The position numbers were made by a program, and so were the translations under genes. The notes under the pieces were generated by a model. That model saw only the letters and a program-made list of their open reading frames with translations, did no database searches and had not been told where the DNA came from. DNA of 54,988 nucleotides from a phage: NCBI GenBank assembly GCA_021081985.1, contig GCA_021081985.1_3639.2. One strand, 5' to 3'. This document shows, piece by piece, positions 18,975 through 54,544 of the stretch. Position 1 is the stretch's first letter; every line of letters begins with the position of its first letter.

Positions 18975-19772
18975 ATGGACTGGAATAAAGAGTTTACAAC
19001 CAAAGAGATAAGGTATCTCAAAACACGACTCTTTTTCAAAAAGAGGAATACCAAAGCGAGAGGTATAGAGTTCAATCTGACAGAAGATGACTGGTTTATG
19101 ATGGGCAACGGATTACTTGGGAAAGGTGTTTGTGATTACACAGGCCTACCTTTTTCTGCGACACCTAATGACCCCCTCTACCCGTCTGTTGAACGAATAG
19201 ATGACAAAAAAGGGTATGTTCGTGGAAACGTTTGTGTAGTCGGTAAGAGAGCAAACCAGTTAAAAGATTTTCTTGTAGACAAAAAGAAAGCTCTAACGAT
19301 TGTAGATCCACTCGACATGGATATCGTCCAAGGAATGATGTTAAATATGTCAAAGGATCACTTGGAAAAGTTAAAACTTAAATACATACCTACGGAAACA
19401 GATATGAAAGAGACAGAGAACGTAATTATTGATGAGCAGGTTGAAGAGATGAAAGAAAAATCTCTTCCTGACGATGTTGAAATTGCACTTGCATACGCAA
19501 ACTACTGTAAAACATTTGCGGAAGCAGGTATGAATGTTAGCGTTACGTATGCACAATTTAAGGCTAAATATTCAAGAAACACCTGTTCTCTAACAGGGGA
19601 GAAGTTAACAAAAACACCAAAACCTATTCTCATTATGGATTTAGATCTTGGGTTCGCAAAAGACAACTTTATTATTGTTTCTGAAAAGATGGAAACAGCA
19701 TTAACACAACTCATGATCAATACGAAAATGAGTTTACCAAAAATCACAGCTATGCTGAATAAGGTGGTTTAA
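18975..19772 (+). CDS. HNH/AP2-like putative homing endonuclease with a duplicated module
   Basis: 265 aa; two copies of a C-x2-TG ... ID ... G-Y/F ... N module (CDYTGLPF...ERIDDKKGYVRGNV and CSLTGEKL...MDLDLGFAKDNF). Residues are degenerate relative to canonical HNH. Confidence 0.4.
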   Translation: MDWNKEFTTKEIRYLKTRLFFKKRNTKARGIEFNLTEDDWFMMGNGLLGKGVCDYTGLPFSATPNDPLYPSVERIDDKKGYVRGNVCVVGKRANQLKDFLVDKKKALTIVDPLDMDIVQGMMLNMSKDHLEKLKLKYIPTETDMKETENVIIDEQVEEMKEKSLPDDVEIALAYANYCKTFAEAGMNVSVTYAQFKAKYSRNTCSLTGEKLTKTPKPILIMDLDLGFAKDNFIIVSEKMETALTQLMINTKMSLPKITAMLNKVV

Positions 19773-20276: not shown

Positions 20277-21713
20277 ATGCAAAAAGACGAATATGAAATG
20301 ATTGCCAAGTTAGAGAAGGATGCTGTAAAAGTTATCCAATCGGCACGAATAGCTCTTTTAAAGTACAGACCATTTTACGGGACTTTGTTAAGTTCTCTAC
20401 CCTTAGTTGCTAACTGGAAATGGTTGCCAACAGCAGCGACTGATCACAAAAACCTCTACTTCAACCCTGAGTTTATTATGGGTATGCCTGAAGAAAGGAA
20501 GAAGAAGGTTTTTGAGCGTGTGGATAATCACCCCACAATGACACAACAAGAAAAAGATGACTATAAAGACTATGTGAACGTATTTTATCGTAAGAAAACA
20601 CCCAAAGAGGTTGTTGTTATTCTTATGCACGAGCTACGTCATATTACTAACGATCATTTATCCCGTGGAAAAGCATTTGATTCTAAAACCTACAACACAG
20701 CAGCAGATCATTATATTAACACGGATTTAGTGGTGTCTGATCTTGGGCCACGCTCCAGCCAGATGTGTTTCTTCCCAATGGGGAAACAGACAACCTTTGA
20801 CAAAGGTAAAGAGTTTGGGTTTATGGCTTATTGCTACTGTGATTTTAATTTCCACGGTAAGACAGCGGAGGAGATTTACAGTCTCATAAACAAAGGCCAA
20901 CCGTCTGTTGGTAAACCTATGGGCACACACATAGGTGATTATGATCAAGACAGCAATATCCTAGGATATGAAGATCCTCACCCAGTGCCAAGCCAAGCAG
21001 AAAAAGATGATAATATGTCGTGGTCATCTGGTCTTATCGAGGCAGCGATGGAAGCAGCGGGAGGAGAGGGGCCGAAAGAGGTGCGTGACGTTATTGCAAG
21101 AATGCGTAAACCACACATAAATTATCTTCAGATAATCAAACAGCGTATGCTTTCTCGGATCAAGTCTAACCTGACATACAGGAAACCATCTCGTAGGTCT
21201 GGATCTATGACACAGGCACTTCGGCAGTATGGAGCTATTGAAAAAAAACAGCATATTGTTTTACCAGGAAGGGAGTACGATAATACTATAGATATAGTTA
21301 TTGGCTTCGATGTGTCTGGATCAATTTCGAAGGCGAATTTAGACAAAATCTTCGGAGAAATTGTAGGATTATGCCAGCTTTACCGCGTTTTTCGCGTGAC
21401 ATTGTTCTGTTGGTCAACAAAAGTCGGAGAGGTTAAAGTTTATACACATGATAATATCAAGGAAATGCTTGATTATAAAGTAAATTCTACGGGTGGGACA
21501 CTTGCAGCATCGGCTTTTGAGTATATTGAAAATAACATTTTTGATGCAAAAGACGTTATTATTTTTACAGACGGGTATATAGAGGATTTAAGCCACAAGA
21601 AAAAAGATTGGGGACGCAAGTGGGATATTCTTTGGGTTATTTGTGGTCGCGGAAATAATAAATTTGTACCACCTTTCGGAAGGGCTGTAAATTTAGATGA
21701 ACACGCAAAATAA
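20277..21713 (+). CDS. VWA-domain protein with N-terminal putative HExxH metallopeptidase domain (DUF2201-like)
   Basis: 478 aa; HELRH zinc-binding-like motif in the N-terminal half; MIDAS motif D-x-S-G-S in VIGFDVSGSIS in the C-terminal half. Confidence 0.65.
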   Translation: MQKDEYEMIAKLEKDAVKVIQSARIALLKYRPFYGTLLSSLPLVANWKWLPTAATDHKNLYFNPEFIMGMPEERKKKVFERVDNHPTMTQQEKDDYKDYVNVFYRKKTPKEVVVILMHELRHITNDHLSRGKAFDSKTYNTAADHYINTDLVVSDLGPRSSQMCFFPMGKQTTFDKGKEFGFMAYCYCDFNFHGKTAEEIYSLINKGQPSVGKPMGTHIGDYDQDSNILGYEDPHPVPSQAEKDDNMSWSSGLIEAAMEAAGGEGPKEVRDVIARMRKPHINYLQIIKQRMLSRIKSNLTYRKPSRRSGSMTQALRQYGAIEKKQHIVLPGREYDNTIDIVIGFDVSGSISKANLDKIFGEIVGLCQLYRVFRVTLFCWSTKVGEVKVYTHDNIKEMLDYKVNSTGGTLAASAFEYIENNIFDAKDVIIFTDGYIEDLSHKKKDWGRKWDILWVICGRGNNKFVPPFGRAVNLDEHAK

Positions 21714-22678: not shown

Positions 22679-22843
22679 ATCATGGATTCGGGTTGTCACA
22701 AGTCACTATGTGACTCTGTGTGGGGATCTTGAATGTGTACCGGAGCATGGCGCACAGGACTGGTTCATCTGTCCGTCTCAACTGGGGCGCGGTGGGTGTC
22801 AAGGTTTAGTTTTACGTTTTGTGTGGGTGTGGAGGAGAGTCTT

Positions 22844-23155
22844 ATGGCCTACGATGAAAATTCTATCCGTGTGCTGTCACCTGATGATATCAAACAGCGA
22901 TTTGACTGGGTACGCATCGGGGATTTGGTTCACGAATATAACTTACCTGTGGATTGGGTCAGACGTGGCTTTGAAGCGTGCTGGAGGTTAGGCATCGAGC
23001 CTGATTATTTTATCAACAAGTACATCCTCAAGCATGGTGTTGATCCTGTACCTGATTTCGAGGCTGTTTTTAAAGAGATTATTATGGAATCTCGATTCAG
23101 GGATCAGGTATGCACTCGGCAGTCTCAAAAACGCATCTGCGAATCAGATTTGTAA
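22844..23155 (+). CDS. Hypothetical protein (start trimmed to ATG after GGAGGAGAG)
   Basis: The ORF-track start at 22733 lies inside the structured intergenic region; the ATG at 22844 has a strong RBS. Confidence 0.4.
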   Translation: MAYDENSIRVLSPDDIKQRFDWVRIGDLVHEYNLPVDWVRRGFEACWRLGIEPDYFINKYILKHGVDPVPDFEAVFKEIIMESRFRDQVCTRQSQKRICESDL

Positions 23156-23241
23156 ATGTGGTCCACAGATAGGTAAAAACATCAACGCGCAAACGATCGC
23201 GCGTGGCATCTGTAGAGCAAATTTTCAATTTTAGGAGAAAA

Positions 23242-23604
23242 ATGATGAATCGTACCATTACAGAAAAAGATCGTGAAATTGCTAAACAAAAACGAGAGCA
23301 ACAAAAGCGAGAATGGACTGCCTTGGCAGAAGCGGGAAAAATACGCCAACATTTCGCTGACGCTAATCACTGGGCAAGGCTCCGTAGTCAATACGGGATT
23401 ACATCCCCGAATAAGCTAGCACCAGCCGAAAGTAAGTATGGTTTGAAAATCCTTCGAAAGACGGTTAAGCTAACCGGAGGGTTCGAGTGGTTCAATGAGT
23501 CTTTCGGTATGGACATCAAGCAGTTTGTCAGAATGAACCCTTCATGGCCTGCATACGCTATTCAAGGGATCATCCTTGAAGAGTGGGATGATTATCAGAA
23601 TTGA
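23242..23604 (+). CDS. Hypothetical protein
   Basis: RBS TAGGAGAAAA then ATG at 23242; charged N-terminal helix. Confidence 0.4.
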   Translation: MMNRTITEKDREIAKQKREQQKREWTALAEAGKIRQHFADANHWARLRSQYGITSPNKLAPAESKYGLKILRKTVKLTGGFEWFNESFGMDIKQFVRMNPSWPAYAIQGIILEEWDDYQN

Positions 23605-23697
23605 TTTTTGTTGTGTTTCTGATAGCCAACTGGTATGTTTATTACAGGGAGTGATAACCACCCCTGTGTTACTTGTTTTATACAGGAGAGTTGATAT

Positions 23698-24321
23698 ATG
23701 TCTTGGCCTTTTTTGATTTATCTTATTGATGTTCTTAGTACTGATGGGAAGTATGATGGCTGGGGATTCTTGTTGTTTCTGTGTGTTATTGTATACATGC
23801 TGATGCGTCTTCTTCCAAAGATCCTCGAAGAACCTAAGCTGGATATCTATCCAGGACAAAATCTTGTTTTAGCACAAGATTGGTCACGATTTAAAGCCGG
23901 AGATGTTCTTGTTGTGAAGGATACTGCTGGTGGTGATGTTCTTCTTCGCCACGGGGAGGAATCCCTTGGTTCTTGGGTGAGCAAGAGCATTTTACGAAAA
24001 GTGTGCAAACTTGATGAAAAACAAGGATATATCCCACAGCAAGATGCGATGGAAACACCGCGAAAGTTAACTGTGATTGCTATGGTTGTCTGTGTGATGG
24101 GTATTCTATATGCCAACTTCATGCCGCAGAAAGAGACTTCTTACAAGATGCTTGCTGCGTATGTGGGTCAAAACATTGTTGAATCTCCAAGGACTCAACA
24201 ACTTGCGGATAGCACAATCAAGTATCTAGATGCCCAAATCAAGAAGTACACTCAAGAATTAGGTGACTCTTCAGAAGTGGCGAGTAAGGATTCTAAGCCT
24301 GGTGAGAAGGTGAAAGAGTGA
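23698..24321 (+). CDS. Putative membrane protein
   Basis: 207 aa with two hydrophobic stretches (GFLLFLCVIVYMLMRLL and LTVIAMVVCVMGILYANF). Confidence 0.4.
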   Translation: MSWPFLIYLIDVLSTDGKYDGWGFLLFLCVIVYMLMRLLPKILEEPKLDIYPGQNLVLAQDWSRFKAGDVLVVKDTAGGDVLLRHGEESLGSWVSKSILRKVCKLDEKQGYIPQQDAMETPRKLTVIAMVVCVMGILYANFMPQKETSYKMLAAYVGQNIVESPRTQQLADSTIKYLDAQIKKYTQELGDSSEVASKDSKPGEKVKE

Positions 24322-24683
24322 TGGGAAAGCCATTTGAAACAAAACGCATAGCGTTGGACTTTGATGATACTTTCACGCTAGAGCCTGAGAGATGGTCACA
24401 ATTTGTTTCTCTATTTGCAGCAAAGGGTTCAGGTTGGTGTGTTAAATTTGTTACTTATCGCTTCGATTCAGATGATAACTCTGATATCCAGTTTTGGGCT
24501 GAAAAACTAGGTATCGAAATAATTTATTGCAATGGTATCCAGAAAGCACAAGTTTGTGCAGAACTTGGTTGGATCCCAGATGTGTGGATAGACGATTTTC
24601 CTGTTCTCATTCCTGTGAAACAACAACTACAGGGTATGCTTTTAGGAATAGAAAATAACGAAGAAAAACATAATGCTAAGTAG
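24318..24683 (+). CDS. Hypothetical protein, possibly HAD-like phosphatase
   Basis: 121 aa; IALDFDDTF resembles HAD motif I DxDxT. Weak. Confidence 0.3.
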   Translation: MMGKPFETKRIALDFDDTFTLEPERWSQFVSLFAAKGSGWCVKFVTYRFDSDDNSDIQFWAEKLGIEIIYCNGIQKAQVCAELGWIPDVWIDDFPVLIPVKQQLQGMLLGIENNEEKHNAK

Positions 24684-24920
24684 TTTAAGGGGGAGTGTTG
24701 AGAAGCATTGCGTATTACAAATTCAAATGTTGGGAGAAACTCTATGATTTGAGCTACCTTATTTTTGGGAATCTCCCTGTCACTGAAGACATTAAACACA
24801 AAATGTATCTTGCATACATGAAATACCGTCTCCACGAAAGAAAGAGTGGTTGATGAGAATGTTATGATGCCCTGTAGATACTCTCTACAGGGCTTGAATG
24901 CTTAATCACAGGACTTACCA

Positions 24921-25745
24921 ATGACAAGTATTTTACACACGACAGGTATTTTACCACACTATCAGAAGGACTATTCTTTCCCTGATTTATCTGGGGATAT
25001 GTTGCAAATATACGACAAAGTGCAAGGCGAAGTGTCGGAGCTACAGTTTAGTTCAGACCCTGATGATGAGCAAGAGTTTGATAAACAGATTTGTCGTGTA
25101 GAAAACGAGCTTATAGAGCTACAATCATTAGCCAAATCAACAGATATCGAAGACTTAAGGCGATACGTTGAGAATCTTGAAAATTTAGTGTTCGGGCTTT
25201 CGCAAGCTATTATAAACATTGGTGAAATTGCTAAAATTGCCTCTGACAAGTTGCCAGACAACGCAGAAGATATTGAAGAAGCGTTGCAGAATATCTGCTA
25301 TGAAGGAAGTTCTGCTCTCGGTTGTGAATGTAATCTAGGAAATGCTCTTGAAGAACGTGGGTGGAGCCTGTTCCAAAAAACTTTTGTTTATCGTGTTATT
25401 GGTGGTGAGTTCCCACGACTCTTACAACTTAATACCCTTTTTGGAAACAGTCAGAGTGATAATATTGCATTAGGTATTGATGGCTGGTTCTGCTTAAGAG
25501 GTAAAGAATTAACATTTTGTCGTGGCGATGATGTGTTAATTCTCAATGCTTCTAAACCTGGTGTTGGAATAACAGTGAGACTTAATGGTAAGTCCGCTAA
25601 TTTCCACACCACAGAATTGGCAGATATTTTTATGGACATATTAGATCCTACAGAAGACGAAATTCTTATGTATGAAATGACCAGTGGAAAAAGATATGAT
25701 ATTTTGTCGTGGAGAAATATTTTCGGTAAGAAGAAAAGTTTATAG
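24921..25745 (+). CDS. Hypothetical protein
   Basis: 274-aa acidic ORF followed by a hairpin at 25776-25798. Confidence 0.45.
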   Translation: MTSILHTTGILPHYQKDYSFPDLSGDMLQIYDKVQGEVSELQFSSDPDDEQEFDKQICRVENELIELQSLAKSTDIEDLRRYVENLENLVFGLSQAIINIGEIAKIASDKLPDNAEDIEEALQNICYEGSSALGCECNLGNALEERGWSLFQKTFVYRVIGGEFPRLLQLNTLFGNSQSDNIALGIDGWFCLRGKELTFCRGDDVLILNASKPGVGITVRLNGKSANFHTTELADIFMDILDPTEDEILMYEMTSGKRYDILSWRNIFGKKKSL

Positions 25746-26010
25746 TATGATATTTTATCGCTGATATTTGTTTTCCCTGTGATATTTTGTCACAGGGAGA
25801 AGTTTCAACAACAGATATTTTCTTGATACTTTAAAATTCTACCAGAATTTTAAATTCTGTAAATTTAGAAAACTATTACTTATAAGCGTTTCGACACAAT
25901 TTTGTTATGAAAGCCTTGTTTTTATATAAAAACCTGTTTTAGCATGAGTGGTAGGATCACACTCCATACTACCTTTATTCCTACAGATGAGCACCTCCAT
26001 GTCCGAAAAC

Positions 26011-26200
26011 TCGGTTCTCGATCGAAAATTCATTTTCTAAATCGTATTTGCTCCTTACGGAGAAAATTTTTTAGGGCTACAAATTTCAGTTCTCGATCGG
26101 TTTTTCGATTTCAAAATCGTATTTGTTTTTTCTTGCGAAATTTTTCGCACGCTCAGTTCTCGATCGAGTTTTCAAAATCGAAATCGTATTTGCTCTATAG
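26011..26200. repeat. Three imperfect direct repeats (GTTCTCGATCG ... AAATCGTATTTG), 67-75 bp period, with flanking A/T palindromes
   Basis: GTTCTCGATCG at 26014, 26089 and 26156; AAATCGTATTTG at 26039, 26114 and 26181. Confidence 0.6.
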
Positions 26201-26601
26201 CGCGAAAAAATTTTTATGGGTATCATAATTCTATCACACACTTAAACGCAAAGCAACATAAAAATTTTTGTTGAATGATAATCATTCTCATTTGCAGAAT
26301 GACAGGTAGGATTGGTGTCTTATCCTCCCCCGTTGACCATCGTCGCCGTAGTTTGAAGTTTATAGCCGTTCTCGGCTTATCTCTTTGTTAGATAGAGATT
26401 AACATAGTTGCCAAAGGAATCAAGCGTTAATTGTAATCTTTACGTTTCTTTACAAATTTATTTTGGACGAGTTACCGGCGATCGACCTTACAACCAGCGC
26501 CATGGTATGTTAGCCCCGCCTTTACGCCGTGGGGATGGCGTTTCCTCTTTTGTATGTTAGTCATAATAAGCCCAATCCCTGGGCTTGTCAAACATTTTTA
26601 T

Positions 26602-26865
26602 CTATTTATTTTCTTGCCAGGTTAGGACACCTAACCAGAAATGGCAATCACCTTTCGCCCATTGTGGTATATTGCTTTCTTTCCCACCTTCTCGCGCCCA
26701 GGAATAACCGCCCGTGTAACTTTGCAATTGATAACTATCCTCGACCTTATAATCTGACAGGTTGAGAACTGTTTCTACCTTTAAGCCCGTTGCGCTCGCT
26801 ACCTGGTGGATAGTTCCCCCTTGCCAGCCTAACGCGTACATAAGGTGCATTGTGGTAGTGGTCAT
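26602..26865 (-). CDS. Hypothetical protein, divergent from the early cluster
   Basis: 87-aa ORF; GAGGAA upstream of ATG on the minus strand. Confidence 0.35.
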   Translation of the reverse strand: MTTTTMHLMYALGWQGGTIHQVASATGLKVETVLNLSDYKVEDSYQLQSYTGGYSWAREGGKESNIPQWAKGDCHFWLGVLTWQENK

Positions 26866-26950
26866 TTTTCCTATTCCTCTGTTAGTTGGTTAGTTGTTAA
26901 AATTGTATCTATAATCAGCCAGGTTTGCAAGGCAAATAAAAGAGAAAAAT

Positions 26951-26996
26951 TTTTTAAAAATAGTATTGACAGCGGGGGGTAGTATAGATCTACTAT
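26951..26996 (+). promoter_or_regulatory. Putative sigma70-type early promoter with A/T-rich upstream element
   Basis: AAAAATAGTATTGACA with TTGACA at 26966-26971; the -10 is ambiguous (TATAGAT or TACTAT). The same AAAAATAGTATTGACA element recurs at 32021-32037. Confidence 0.4.
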
Positions 26997-27050
26997 GTGC
27001 ACATCAAGGCGATACACCGCCACCAACCAACCTAAAAGGGGTAAATTAAT

Positions 27051-27674
27051 ATGAAAACCATCGTTAACGCTGAGAATGTATCTTTCGATAAGTTGAACGA
27101 CGAACAAAAAGAAAAAGCCATTGATCTTATTCGTGAGCGTGAAAGAGAAAGCGCCGATAATTTCTTTGCGGATAGTGTCATTGAAGACTATAAGAATGAC
27201 ATTTTACCAGAGTACGGGATCGATGACGCGGTTATCTATTGGTCAGGATTCTGGTCGCAAGGCGACGGCGCATCAATCAGCACTGACAGCGTGGATATTG
27301 AAAAATTTTTAAGAAAAGTTAAATCTTTAACAAAATTTAGAGGTATCCGCAAACTATTTGATCTCGGTGAATATAGCCAGTTATATGCAAGCATTGAGCG
27401 GGATAACTACAGCCGTTACCATCATGAAAATACTGTATCAGGTTACGTTGAGACTATGTATTGCGGTGATTTAACGGCAAAACAGGAAGATCTGATCAAT
27501 CAGCTTGAAAACTTGTTAACTGAAACGATCCGCGATCTGTCTTGTAAACTTTACAGAGATTTAGAATCAGCCTACGATGACCAGTTTACAGATGAAGCCA
27601 TCACCGAGTCAATTGAAGCCAATGATTATCGTTTTGATATTGATGAAGATGGAAAAGTTTACGCTATCGCTTAA
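27051..27674 (+). CDS. Acidic hypothetical protein (first gene of the early cluster)
   Basis: 207 aa, Asp/Glu-rich; RBS AAAAGGGGTAAATTAAT before ATG. Confidence 0.5.
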   Translation: MKTIVNAENVSFDKLNDEQKEKAIDLIRERERESADNFFADSVIEDYKNDILPEYGIDDAVIYWSGFWSQGDGASISTDSVDIEKFLRKVKSLTKFRGIRKLFDLGEYSQLYASIERDNYSRYHHENTVSGYVETMYCGDLTAKQEDLINQLENLLTETIRDLSCKLYRDLESAYDDQFTDEAITESIEANDYRFDIDEDGKVYAIA

Positions 27675-27680
27675 AAGTAC

Positions 27681-27710
27681 TTGCATTCAGTTTTAAAATA
27701 GTATTATACT
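27681..27710 (+). promoter_or_regulatory. Putative promoter TTGCAT-17-TTATAC
   Basis: Precedes the 5' stem-loop at 27721-27740 and the gene at 27762. Confidence 0.35.
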
Positions 27711-27761
27711 ACTATCACAAAGCGGGGAATCTCTCCCCGCGACATTCAGGAGATCATCAAA

Positions 27762-27974
27762 ATGGCTAATATCCGCACCTTGTTAAAAAATGCAAAGCAA
27801 GTTTTATTTTCCGATCACGATTATTTAAATAAAGACATTACAGGCGTAAAGAATATCAAAGACGTAAAAAATGTCATGGGTATCTATTGCAATATGAAGC
27901 GAGTAGGCACATTTGGTAATAAAGTATTATATCAGGCAGGTGACTACAATTTTACTTTGACAATTATTTCATAA
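27762..27974 (+). CDS. Hypothetical small protein
   Basis: 70 aa; RBS CAGGAGATCATCAAA before ATG. Confidence 0.45.
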   Translation: MANIRTLLKNAKQVLFSDHDYLNKDITGVKNIKDVKNVMGIYCNMKRVGTFGNKVLYQAGDYNFTLTIIS

Positions 27975-27980
27975 AACCAC

Positions 27981-28008
27981 TTGCAAAGTTATATAGTCCT
28001 GTTATACT
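27981..28008 (+). promoter_or_regulatory. Putative promoter TTGCAA-16-TATACT
   Basis: Hexamers at 27981-27986 and 28003-28008. Confidence 0.45.
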
Positions 28009-28041
28009 ACCAACATTGACAAACGAGAGGTAAATAAAAAA

Positions 28042-28398
28042 ATGGCAATCCAGGCAATCCTGTTAGAACTTACAGACTTCCGTAATACTGTAAAAAATTT
28101 AACCAAAAAACAGGTTGATAATATTATCAACGGATACCGTAGCAAGATTAAAGATCTTCCGCTTAAACGCGATCAACATGCGGCTAATATGATGCTTGAC
28201 GCTATGATCAAAAAGATGATTCAGTGCGATCTTACTCTGGCTTATGAATACGCTGGCGATCTCTTTGTAACGTATAATAAGCCAGTGCCAGGCATGTGCA
28301 CCACGGAAGAATTGCACGCCCTGAATCTAAAACAAGATGCATGGGATAATATGCGCCGCGTTATGGTGTGGGCAGAAAGCGGTAAAATTTATCAATAA
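28042..28398 (+). CDS. Hypothetical protein
   Basis: 118 aa; RBS GAGAGGTAAATAAAAAA before ATG. Confidence 0.45.
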   Translation: MAIQAILLELTDFRNTVKNLTKKQVDNIINGYRSKIKDLPLKRDQHAANMMLDAMIKKMIQCDLTLAYEYAGDLFVTYNKPVPGMCTTEELHALNLKQDAWDNMRRVMVWAESGKIYQ

Positions 28399-28404
28399 AG
28401 ATAG

Positions 28405-28442
28405 TTGTCTTTTAGTTATGCCGTGGTAGAATACACGGCATA
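28405..28442 (+). promoter_or_regulatory. Promoter TTGTCT-16-TAGAAT with a 9-bp inverted repeat (TATGCCGTG / CACGGCATA) bracketing the -10
   Basis: Arms at 28417-28425 and 28434-28442; near-identical copy at 32649-32686. Confidence 0.5.
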
Positions 28443-28474
28443 GATAAGAGAAACTACTTATCAGAGTTTAAAAG

Positions 28475-28693
28475 ATGAAAAATATTACTGGTAAAACCGA
28501 GCTATTAAAGGCGCTTTCTGTCGGTGAGTCAGCTTTATGGGTATGTGAAAAAGATCGCCTACCGTCGCGTGAGATGGCCTTGTTTAAGGCTTTATCTCTG
28601 AAGCTGAAAATTAAATTATCCCAAAAATTAGCGGTTGTTGCCGCACCTGGGGAAACTGCTTTCAGTGTTGTAATGGTTAAAAGGTTGGAGTAG
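28475..28693 (+). CDS. Hypothetical small protein
   Basis: 72-aa ORF. Confidence 0.4.
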   Translation: MKNITGKTELLKALSVGESALWVCEKDRLPSREMALFKALSLKLKIKLSQKLAVVAAPGETAFSVVMVKRLE

Positions 28694-28713
28694 AAAAAAA
28701 ATTAAAAATTATA

Positions 28714-28742
28714 TTGACAAGCAAAACAGCAAAAATTAAACT
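28714..28742 (+). promoter_or_regulatory. Putative promoter TTGACA-17-TAAACT
   Basis: A-rich upstream tract; precedes the gene at 28781. Confidence 0.35.
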
Positions 28743-28780
28743 TACACACAGTTAAACAAATAATATTAACGAGGTAAATC

Positions 28781-29152
28781 ATGAAACAGTTAACCGCTTC
28801 CCAAAAAGCAATGATCCGCAAGTATGTTTTAAACTCTCTTTCTTTCGATATTGAATCGGGTAGCGAGCAAGATCAGATCAAAGAATTAAAAAACCGATTT
28901 GAATCTGAATACTGGTACGATAGCAACAAGAAACGCTATCAAAATGATAAAGTACAAGGCCTCAAAAATTGGTTGCAAGGTTTGCCGAGTGGTGTTAATA
29001 TCGATTTCACTTATTACGATATTGAGCAACGCCTTAAAGATCTTGGAATCATTACCGAGACGACCAGAGAAAGCACTATTGAAAAATATGTATCTGAGTG
29101 GTGGGATCTGATAGCGCCGTTTTATGCTGGGCTAATCGTCAACTTAAAATAA
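28781..29152 (+). CDS. Hypothetical protein
   Basis: 123 aa; RBS ACGAGGTAAATC before ATG. Confidence 0.45.
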   Translation: MKQLTASQKAMIRKYVLNSLSFDIESGSEQDQIKELKNRFESEYWYDSNKKRYQNDKVQGLKNWLQGLPSGVNIDFTYYDIEQRLKDLGIITETTRESTIEKYVSEWWDLIAPFYAGLIVNLK

Positions 29153-33139: not shown

Positions 33140-33186
33140 TCACTCAATAGCGGGGAATATTCCCCGCTTATAGATAGGGCATAATC

Positions 33187-33671: not shown

Positions 33672-33724
33672 CTATCTCATAAGGCGGGGAGCGGTTCCCC
33701 GCCACACTTAAGAGGTAAATAATC

Positions 33725-54019: not shown

Positions 54020-54238
54020 CGCACCATTACGTGCTGCTGCATGTCACCATGCAGATCAGACCATATCTTCATGCTTAAAGCATGTCTGCCGTTTGGGGTG
54101 TCATCAGCTTACACTCTACATCCTTACATTCATCAGGATTGGTCGTTAGGCATTTACGGTTGATACCGATTTAGCACGGGATTCCCTCCATAGAGGATTC
54201 CCCCGTTTAGGCAGATTTTACATGAGCAGTTATAGTTT
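54020..54238 (-). other. Group I intron (ORF-less, about 220 nt) within nrdD; boundaries approximate
   Basis: Minus strand CUAAACGGGGGAAUCCUCUAUGGAGGGAAUCCCGUGCUAAAUCGG closely resembles the T4 td intron core as recalled; R-like AACGACCA and S-like GAUAUGGUC show a compensatory P7 change (GACCA/UGGUC); GNRA hairpin CUGCAUG-GUGA-CAUGCAG near the 3' end; P1 candidate exon CAUGGGU with guide GCUCAUG. Confidence 0.7.
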
Positions 54239-54544
54239 ACCCATGCTTGTAACACGCCCGTCTGAAGAACCTGTTACCTTTTTATTCAACGGTACAGATA
54301 TGAAATCTGGATAAATCCTTTCAACACAACACTCCATGGCTAATTGCTTTAAGTCGTAGTTTGGATCGCCAGGCTTCATGTTTACACCATCTTCCAAGAA
54401 GAAGATAACTTTTGGAAAAACAGGTGTGACTTTATCTTTGCCAAGTCCGTTTTTGTGAACAAGAAAATAATTCTTTGTAATCATTCTCCCAAAATAGGAA
54501 GTATCAAGCCCAAGGCTCAAGGTGATAAATGGGCATTGCATTGC
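54239..54544 (-). CDS. nrdD: NrdD internal exon; boundaries approximate
   Basis: ORF 54230..54541 (MQCPFITLSLGLDTS ... RVTSMG); the in-frame stop lies just inside the following intron. Confidence 0.55.

Follow-up and report, generated by a model that had tools for sequence, protein, structure and literature searches.

An acidic 207-residue protein of an Av-05-like coliphage belongs to a widespread family of phage and plasmid proteins and is a candidate establishment or counter-defence factor

The present analysis places the acidic 207-aa protein encoded in the window (the whole stretch of 54,988 nucleotides that was analysed) in a large family, of which PHROG 5162 covers only the viral part, and rates it as the member of a new family with a probable role in establishment or counter-defence. 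Tentatively, we read the protein as an entry-phase establishment or counter-defence factor that would act through a conserved site, with its acidic surface as an accessory. If counter-defence proves to be its role, the family would rank with ArdA, ArdB and ArdC among the most widespread establishment proteins of mobile elements. No Pfam model, solved structure or experimental record was found for such a widespread family. The 207-aa standalone copy in a culturable coliphage group offers an easy experimental entry point, and close relatives are present in rV5-like phages of the BASEL collection, e.g. EmilHeitz.

The DNA of the window comes from an Av-05-like coliphage (Avunavirus, Vequintavirinae, rV5-type); over 26000-29000, nucleotide identity is 93.5-94.6%. 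The preliminary description, which was made from the letters alone, had pointed out the acidic 207-aa ORF, and this is a genuine gene that begins with ATG and ends with TAA. An identical protein is on record as MCD4173142.1, encoded on a 54,988-bp contig of an E. coli assembly, and the counterpart in phage Av-05 is Av05_0026, annotated as 'hypothetical protein'. The features of the gene and of its product are given in Table 1.

Table 1. Features of the gene and of the encoded protein, in window coordinates.
Feature	Coordinates	Strand	Details
Putative promoter region	26945..26999	+	A/T-rich tract 26945-65, TTGACA 26966-71, TACTAT 26991-96
Shine-Dalgarno-like AAGGGGT	27036..27042	+	8 nt 5' of ATG
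CDS, 207 aa, pI 4.36, net -22	27051..27674	+	PHROG 5162 member
Motif 1, S65-G-F-W-S-Q-G-D-G-A-S-I76	27243..27278	+	Gly-rich loop between predicted strands E61-64 and E74-81
Basic segment, residues 81-101	27291..27353	+	Net +5 here; net positive in 66% of members
Motif 2, Y123-H-H125-E-N-T128	27417..27434	+	Loop between predicted strands E111-117 and E129-135
Polar face of long helix (143-178): E158, R161, Y168, L171, E172, Y175	27522..27575	+	
GC hairpin CGGGGA-N5-TCCCCG	27723..27739	+	Just 3' of stop, 5' region of next gene

Family, conserved motifs and predicted fold

The protein matches PHROG 5162, an entry without functional information, over its whole length (E 8.7e-85), with residues 2-203 aligned to positions 2-199 of the 201 in the profile. 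A profile search against 1.84 billion representatives returned 10,330 clusters at 50% identity (E<=1e-3), 2,444 of them at E<=1e-30, and the family members are nearly all standalone proteins of ~190-210 aa. By tblastn, homologs were detected in 227 phage records, where they are always called 'hypothetical' wherever they are annotated; the phages include rV5-like phages, jumbo phages of the WPEC3/slurp01 and RaK2/K64-1 types, and phages of Erwinia, Xanthomonas, Acinetobacter, Caulobacter and Bacillus. In a collection of 5.8 billion proteins, every homolog was unnamed and lacked a Pfam domain, and a relative is encoded in 516 of the species genomes searched.

Scans of the query and 68 homologs with the Pfam, NCBIfam and PADLOC models gave nothing above noise, and the one Pfam match of the query in hmmscan at E<=1 was to DUF2283, below threshold. 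The PDB sequence searches, run with the single sequence and with the profile, yielded only noise at E>0.4. In the literature, we found no characterisation of any family member and no mention of PHROG 5162, its motif, its accessions or the neighbouring DUF6878 and DUF6915. The 2025 EVADES preprint catalogues 268 anti-defence proteins, 11 of which are DNA mimics; text searches of this preprint and of a phage accessory-gene screen found mention of neither PHROG 5162 nor rV5-type phages.

The preliminary description had seen no catalytic motif in the protein, a view that does not hold in the 68-sequence alignment, where two near-invariant motifs and a conserved polar helix face were found. In this alignment, G56, Q70, G71, G73, H125 and L171 are invariant, and G66, F67, S69, D72, A74, S75, Y123, T128 and Y168 are conserved in at least 90% of the sequences. 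The first motif has the family form SGFWSQGDGAS[FI], in which the residues flanking the invariant Q70, G71 and G73 (G66, F67, S69, D72, A74 and S75) reach at least 96%, and the second has the form Y-x-H-[E]-[N]-T, in which Y123 (99%) and T128 (94%) accompany the invariant H125. The residues of the helix face are spaced i/i+3/i+4/i+7, and a further conserved element of the family, [AS]-N-[ED]-Y-x-F, lies toward the C terminus. Conservation is strongest in the Gly-rich hairpin and at His, Tyr, Thr, Gln and Asp, and also at Phe and Trp, and not at the acidic positions.

The AlphaFold2 model built from the same alignment is of high confidence (pLDDT 94.2, pTM 0.86) and shows a compact alpha/beta domain that runs through beta1, alpha1, alpha2, a beta2/beta3 hairpin, two short helices and a beta4/beta5 hairpin into a 36-residue helix, after which one more short helix leads to a beta6/beta7 hairpin. 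The beta2/beta3 loop of the model corresponds to motif 1 and the beta4/beta5 loop to motif 2. Judging from the secondary-structure topology and the helical periodicity, the conserved residues would gather in one site, with the helix face pointing at the sheet and at both motif loops. When the model was compared with the PDB by Foldseek, the best match had an E of 0.4, with no Ocr, ArdA or other DNA mimic among the matches listed, and since this search gave no significant match, the predicted fold appears to have no solved relative. The structure search of BFVD returned only unannotated homologs.

The Asp/Glu-rich composition noted earlier was borne out when the pI was computed (Table 1): Asp and Glu together account for 46 residues (22.2%) and Lys and Arg for 24. 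Among the ORFs of at least 100 aa in the window, this is the most acidic by both net charge and D+E fraction. It is no extreme outlier beside ORF 24921-25745(+), which lies just upstream and encodes a second strongly acidic protein (274 aa, pI 4.46, net -21; phrog_12959, function unknown). The 257 family members with lengths of 150-260 aa have a median pI of 4.51 and a median net charge of -20 (5-95%: -34 to -11), and the acidity is a selected trait of the family, not a product of chance. At the level of single positions, 10 of the 46 acidic residues are acidic in at least 80% of members and 25 in at least 50%. This family-wide acidity is compatible with the binding of a basic target that itself binds nucleic acids. 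Basic residues are also retained, with Arg28, Arg117 and Arg161 conserved in at least 82% of the family, and the mostly positive segment at residues 81-101 would be atypical for a pure DNA mimic.

Genomic contexts in phages, plasmids and ICEs

Seven further unrelated phage or phage-plasmid contigs carry the gene within long co-directional arrays of small unannotated genes. Two of these arrays adjoin the point of divergence from a structural or terminase block, one places the gene directly upstream of rIIA/rIIB-like genes, and another places it near RepL and an N6-methyltransferase together with a giant helicase. The copy in Caulobacter phage CcrSC lies under a feature annotated as terminal repeats.

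Among the 150 best matches, the family domain was found fused to other domains only once, in the 1,479-aa protein P0164 (locus L092, 1155-5594), which has an N-terminal Fic/DOC domain (E 1.3e-12) and the PHROG 5162 domain at residues 779-960. P0164 contains ~9 linker motifs of the form L-K-x-S-F-[EVQ]-[DER]-[EP]-P, and the family domain falls precisely between two of them, at 766 and 970. Most of these linkers have an S-x-E form that recalls the sites at which prohead proteases of phages cleave. A portal gene follows immediately after the P0164 gene, head-protease-like genes are nearby, and P0164 is probably a packaged, protease-processed polyvalent effector. As a separate observation, the downstream portal gene also matches LAGLIDADG/endonuclease families.

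Polyvalent proteins have been proposed to be delivered together with the DNA and to act at invasion (PMC5512222). The PHROG 5162 domain resembles the domains of the polyvalent proteins described by Iyer et al. 2017 (PMC5512222) in that it occurs, in this single example, as a discrete linker-delimited module beside an effector domain, and in that most family copies are standalone, as is the case with many polyvalent-protein domains. It differs from them in matching no Pfam model, the LPD models included, and a text search of that article for the family motif found nothing. In one phage lineage, the family gene is followed by an ORF of the Kyano_Gp96 family (PF23790; locus L093, 8606-8917), with overlapping stop and start codons, and a weak match to the same family (E 0.009) lies inside P0164 at residues 1234-1305. 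Given this adjacency and the weak match within P0164, the two domains may be functionally linked.

Outside phages, 71 PLSDB records carry a homolog, mostly from Rhodobacterales and Rhizobiales, and 23 of these plasmids are typed as conjugative. By hhalign (probability 100%, E 1e-42) and by their motifs, the plasmid homologs are genuine members of the family, and their neighbours are genes of the establishment type, namely SSB, DUF932, RadC, ParB, a PF03230 gene, a giant methyltransferase/helicase or strawberry-notch protein, and Toprim. [quoted passage not shown]

Neighbouring genes were clustered over the best 80 loci of the genome matches, mostly alphaproteobacterial ICEs and plasmids. Upstream, the recurrent order is a ParB-like gene (34/80), DUF6878, DUF6915 and an unannotated 139-aa ORF (53/80), followed by the family gene, and downstream it is a gene for a ~1,450-aa methyltransferase/strawberry-notch helicase (65/80), DUF7146-Toprim (45/80) and a YAcAr/SLOG protein, although counts such as 65/80 are not independent because the alphaproteobacterial synteny is essentially that of one element lineage. 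A PF03230 antirestriction gene follows directly on the same strand, at a distance of 0.5-0.8 kb, in 8 of the 80 loci. The five non-alphaproteobacterial loci have phage-type replication and nucleotide genes around the family gene, and one of them has the pair of strawberry-notch and DUF7146-Toprim genes.

Dozens of the alphaproteobacterial plasmid homologs (in loci L002-L004 and among L012-L091) were named 'antitoxin of toxin-antitoxin stability system' by PGAP, and no NCBIfam or Pfam match of these homologs was found behind the name. The 139-aa ORF overlaps the start of the family gene in the loci where it was counted, by 8 nt in many of them. Its product has a median pI of 4.3, hence is itself acidic, and contains no toxin domain; an HMM of it found matches only in two alphaproteobacterial plasmids and none in the window, the sampled phage loci or the Shinella plasmid.

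Readings of function

The location of the gene in small-gene arrays of phages, in establishment modules of plasmids and ICEs, and in a polyprotein of a head module suggests that its product works during DNA entry or shortly afterwards. A mechanism based on a site is favoured because the Gly-rich hairpin, the His, Tyr, Thr, Gln and Asp residues, and the polar helix face are deeply conserved across phyla; such conservation over thousands of clusters would be expected of a defined binding or catalytic site with a conserved target. In the mechanism that we propose, the protein would be the standalone copy of a widespread mobile-element domain, made at or just after DNA entry, and in some phages the domain would be injected together with the DNA. 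It would help the incoming element to become established, the likeliest way being to neutralise a conserved host factor or a component of a defence system. The site would comprise the SGFWSQGDGAS hairpin, the Y-x-H-x-x-T loop and the helix face formed by E158, R161, Y168, E172 and Y175, and its ligand or substrate may be a small molecule or else a conserved segment of a protein. The acidic surface would be an accessory, with no elongated charge replica of B-DNA in the style of Ocr or ArdA. The preliminary description had proposed a possible DNA-mimic or anti-restriction candidate from composition and position; the broad idea of an entry-phase protein that may counter host defence gains support from the genomic context, but not from the composition.

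A bolder form of this reading, which we consider possible but doubtful, is that the family is a new pan-phylum class of entry-phase counter-defence effectors, being either a nucleic-acid mimic of new architecture or an enzyme or sponge that works through the SQGDG and Y-x-H-x-x-T site. It is equally doubtful in its further part, namely that such a class, with a fold unseen in the PDB, is common to virulent phages, conjugative plasmids and ICEs, and virion-delivered polyproteins. As an enzyme or sponge, the protein would remove a conserved immune or host molecule; the sequence and structure searches detected no homology to a characterised enzyme, sponge or inhibitor.

Since the neighbours are often genes of replication, partition and recombination, a role in DNA metabolism fits the contexts equally well. 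In this alternative, which we regard as unlikely, the protein would not serve counter-defence but would be a housekeeping factor that helps the element to replicate, partition or recombine its own DNA, for example as regulator or loader of a primase or a helicase, or as an acidic protein that partners SSB or ParB. The phage neighbours give it substance, with DNA ligase, RepL, a DnaA_C-like protein, RuvC, RecA, Pol A, a 5'-3' exonuclease and ParB, and further with SNF2 helicase, primase-polymerase, D5/DnaB helicases, RNR and ThyX, and on plasmids the ParB-like, strawberry-notch helicase and DUF7146-Toprim genes are of the same kind. However, no one replication gene co-occurs across lineages, and the arrays of small phage genes are typically accessory rather than core replication modules. 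The protein is strongly acidic and has no DNA- or nucleotide-binding signature, and its occurrence as a module of a Fic polyprotein in a head module is hard to square with a role in the replisome.

Somewhat less likely again is a DNA mimic of new architecture, which would fill the DNA-binding groove of a type I R-M or BREX system, of RecBCD or of a similar target, and would thereby protect unmodified incoming DNA. The low pI and the net charge of the protein, the retention of 25 of its 46 acidic positions in at least half of the family, the entry-phase contexts and the adjacent ArdB/KlcA-type gene in 8/80 loci would all suit such a mimic. Known DNA mimics have many unrelated folds, so the missing Ocr or ArdA fold is itself compatible with mimicry. 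Ocr and ArdA, with which the preliminary description had compared the protein, have pI values of ~4 (10.1101/2023.04.06.535777). The charge density of the protein is, however, less than half that of T7 Ocr (-0.106 vs ~-0.24 per residue, a rough comparison of composition), its 24 basic residues include the three conserved arginines (R28, R117 and R161) and the mostly positive segment, and the residues of highest conservation are Gly, Gln, His, Thr, Tyr, Phe and Trp. The compact, non-elongated model and the lack of a Pfam match to Ocr or ArdA and of a structural match to any mimic also weigh against this alternative.

As for the specific proposal of an Ocr/ArdA-type mimic, it is not supported by the evidence of sequence, fold, charge density and conserved basic residues, and the predicted structure, compared with the PDB by Foldseek, resembles neither protein. 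Ocr (T7 gp0.3, PF08684), which inhibits type I R-M and BREX systems, is acidic like the present protein, and each gene stands, in a virulent coliphage, at the front of a series of small genes of the early type. Ocr, however, is an elongated helical dimer, and the compact alpha/beta domain predicted here does not correspond to its elongated, mostly helical fold that resembles bent B-DNA; unlike Ocr, moreover, the PHROG 5162 family has deeply conserved non-acidic motifs and spans many phyla as well as plasmids. The PF08684 model matched neither the query nor any of the 68 family members. ArdA (PF07275) is likewise acidic, belongs to a very broad family and occurs in the establishment regions of conjugative plasmids and ICEs as well as in phages, but the motifs and topology of the PHROG 5162 family differ from it; PF07275 had no match in the query or the 68 members, and no ArdA was among the PDB fold matches listed. 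With ArdB/KlcA (PF03230, 'Antirestrict'), the family has the plasmid neighbourhood in common, but the sequences are unrelated, and the two are neighbours and not homologs. The PF03230 model gave no match for the query; the adjacent gene in Asticcacaulis matches it at E 1.7e-37, and therefore the model works as a control.

An antitoxin of a type II toxin-antitoxin stability system, as the PGAP name and the 139-aa ORF overlapping the gene start in 53/80 loci would have it, is highly improbable and was rejected because the only candidate partner is acidic, devoid of a toxin domain, confined to one plasmid lineage and absent from the window and the phage loci, and because the name has no NCBIfam or Pfam model under it; there is, in addition, no conserved adjacent toxin gene and no DNA-binding domain, the length of ~200 aa and the deep motif conservation are unlike those of typical type II antitoxins, and it is hard to see what a lytic phage would gain from a stability antitoxin. 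The product name propagated among the plasmid homologs is thus without detectable basis.

Early-gene signals and other features of the window

The preliminary description had called this the first early gene, at the head of the early cluster. This holds only in part. A 1.3-kb stretch poor in ORFs and a divergent ORF of 87 aa come before the gene, which is the first one after them and has a TTGACA sequence ahead of it, but similar co-directional small genes are already present upstream, at 22733-25745. Its early timing is deduced from this gene organisation, and no transcriptome for the rV5-type or Av-05-like phage group was found in the literature. The gene and the co-directional small genes after it have in common an initiation region of the form AAAGAGGTAAAT-N3-4-ATG. 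In the putative promoter, the -35-like TTGACA is separated from TACTAT, the best -10 candidate, by a suboptimal spacer of 19 nt, and this pair was absent from the output of a consensus promoter scan. A candidate phage-specific promoter motif, AAATAGTATT, was rejected as it was not enriched (13 matches vs 9.5 expected).

Within the ORF-poor stretch (25746-27050), three direct repeats of ~63 nt lie at 26010-26214, with the core GTTCTCGATCG...AAATCGTATTTG, spacings of 75 and 67 nt, and 70-76% identity; they were found by a repeat search and missed by TRF. These repeats look iteron-like or regulatory. The segment 26415-26865, which includes the minus-strand 87-aa ORF at 26602-26865 (phrog_19316, function unknown), is conserved, with 80-92% nucleotide identity, among phages of the Phapecoctavirus, Justusliebigvirus and Dompiswa groups; these otherwise match little (22%) or none of the 3-kb query. 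This segment may be a mobile or strongly constrained element.

Elsewhere in the window, no tRNA genes were found, and a group I catalytic intron lies at 54037-54277(-), with a full-length match to the Rfam model RF00028 (80.9 bits). Two ORFs for HNH homing endonucleases, at 18975-19772(+) (phrog_3118) and 20277-21713(+) (phrog_1314), occupy the position that nicotinamide phosphoribosyltransferase and ribose-phosphate pyrophosphokinase have in Av-05, as judged by the offset from the matched region, and the local gene content may therefore differ from that of Av-05.

The GC hairpin that follows the stop codon of the 27051-27674 gene has no T-run after it on the + strand. Hairpins of this type (CGGGGA-N4-5-TCCCCG) occur three times in the window, the other two at 33151-33166 and 33685-33701, with none expected in shuffled sequences. 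All three lie upstream of the Shine-Dalgarno sequence of a small + strand gene, two of them after a promoter-like sequence, and they may be 5'-UTR regulatory or processing sites.
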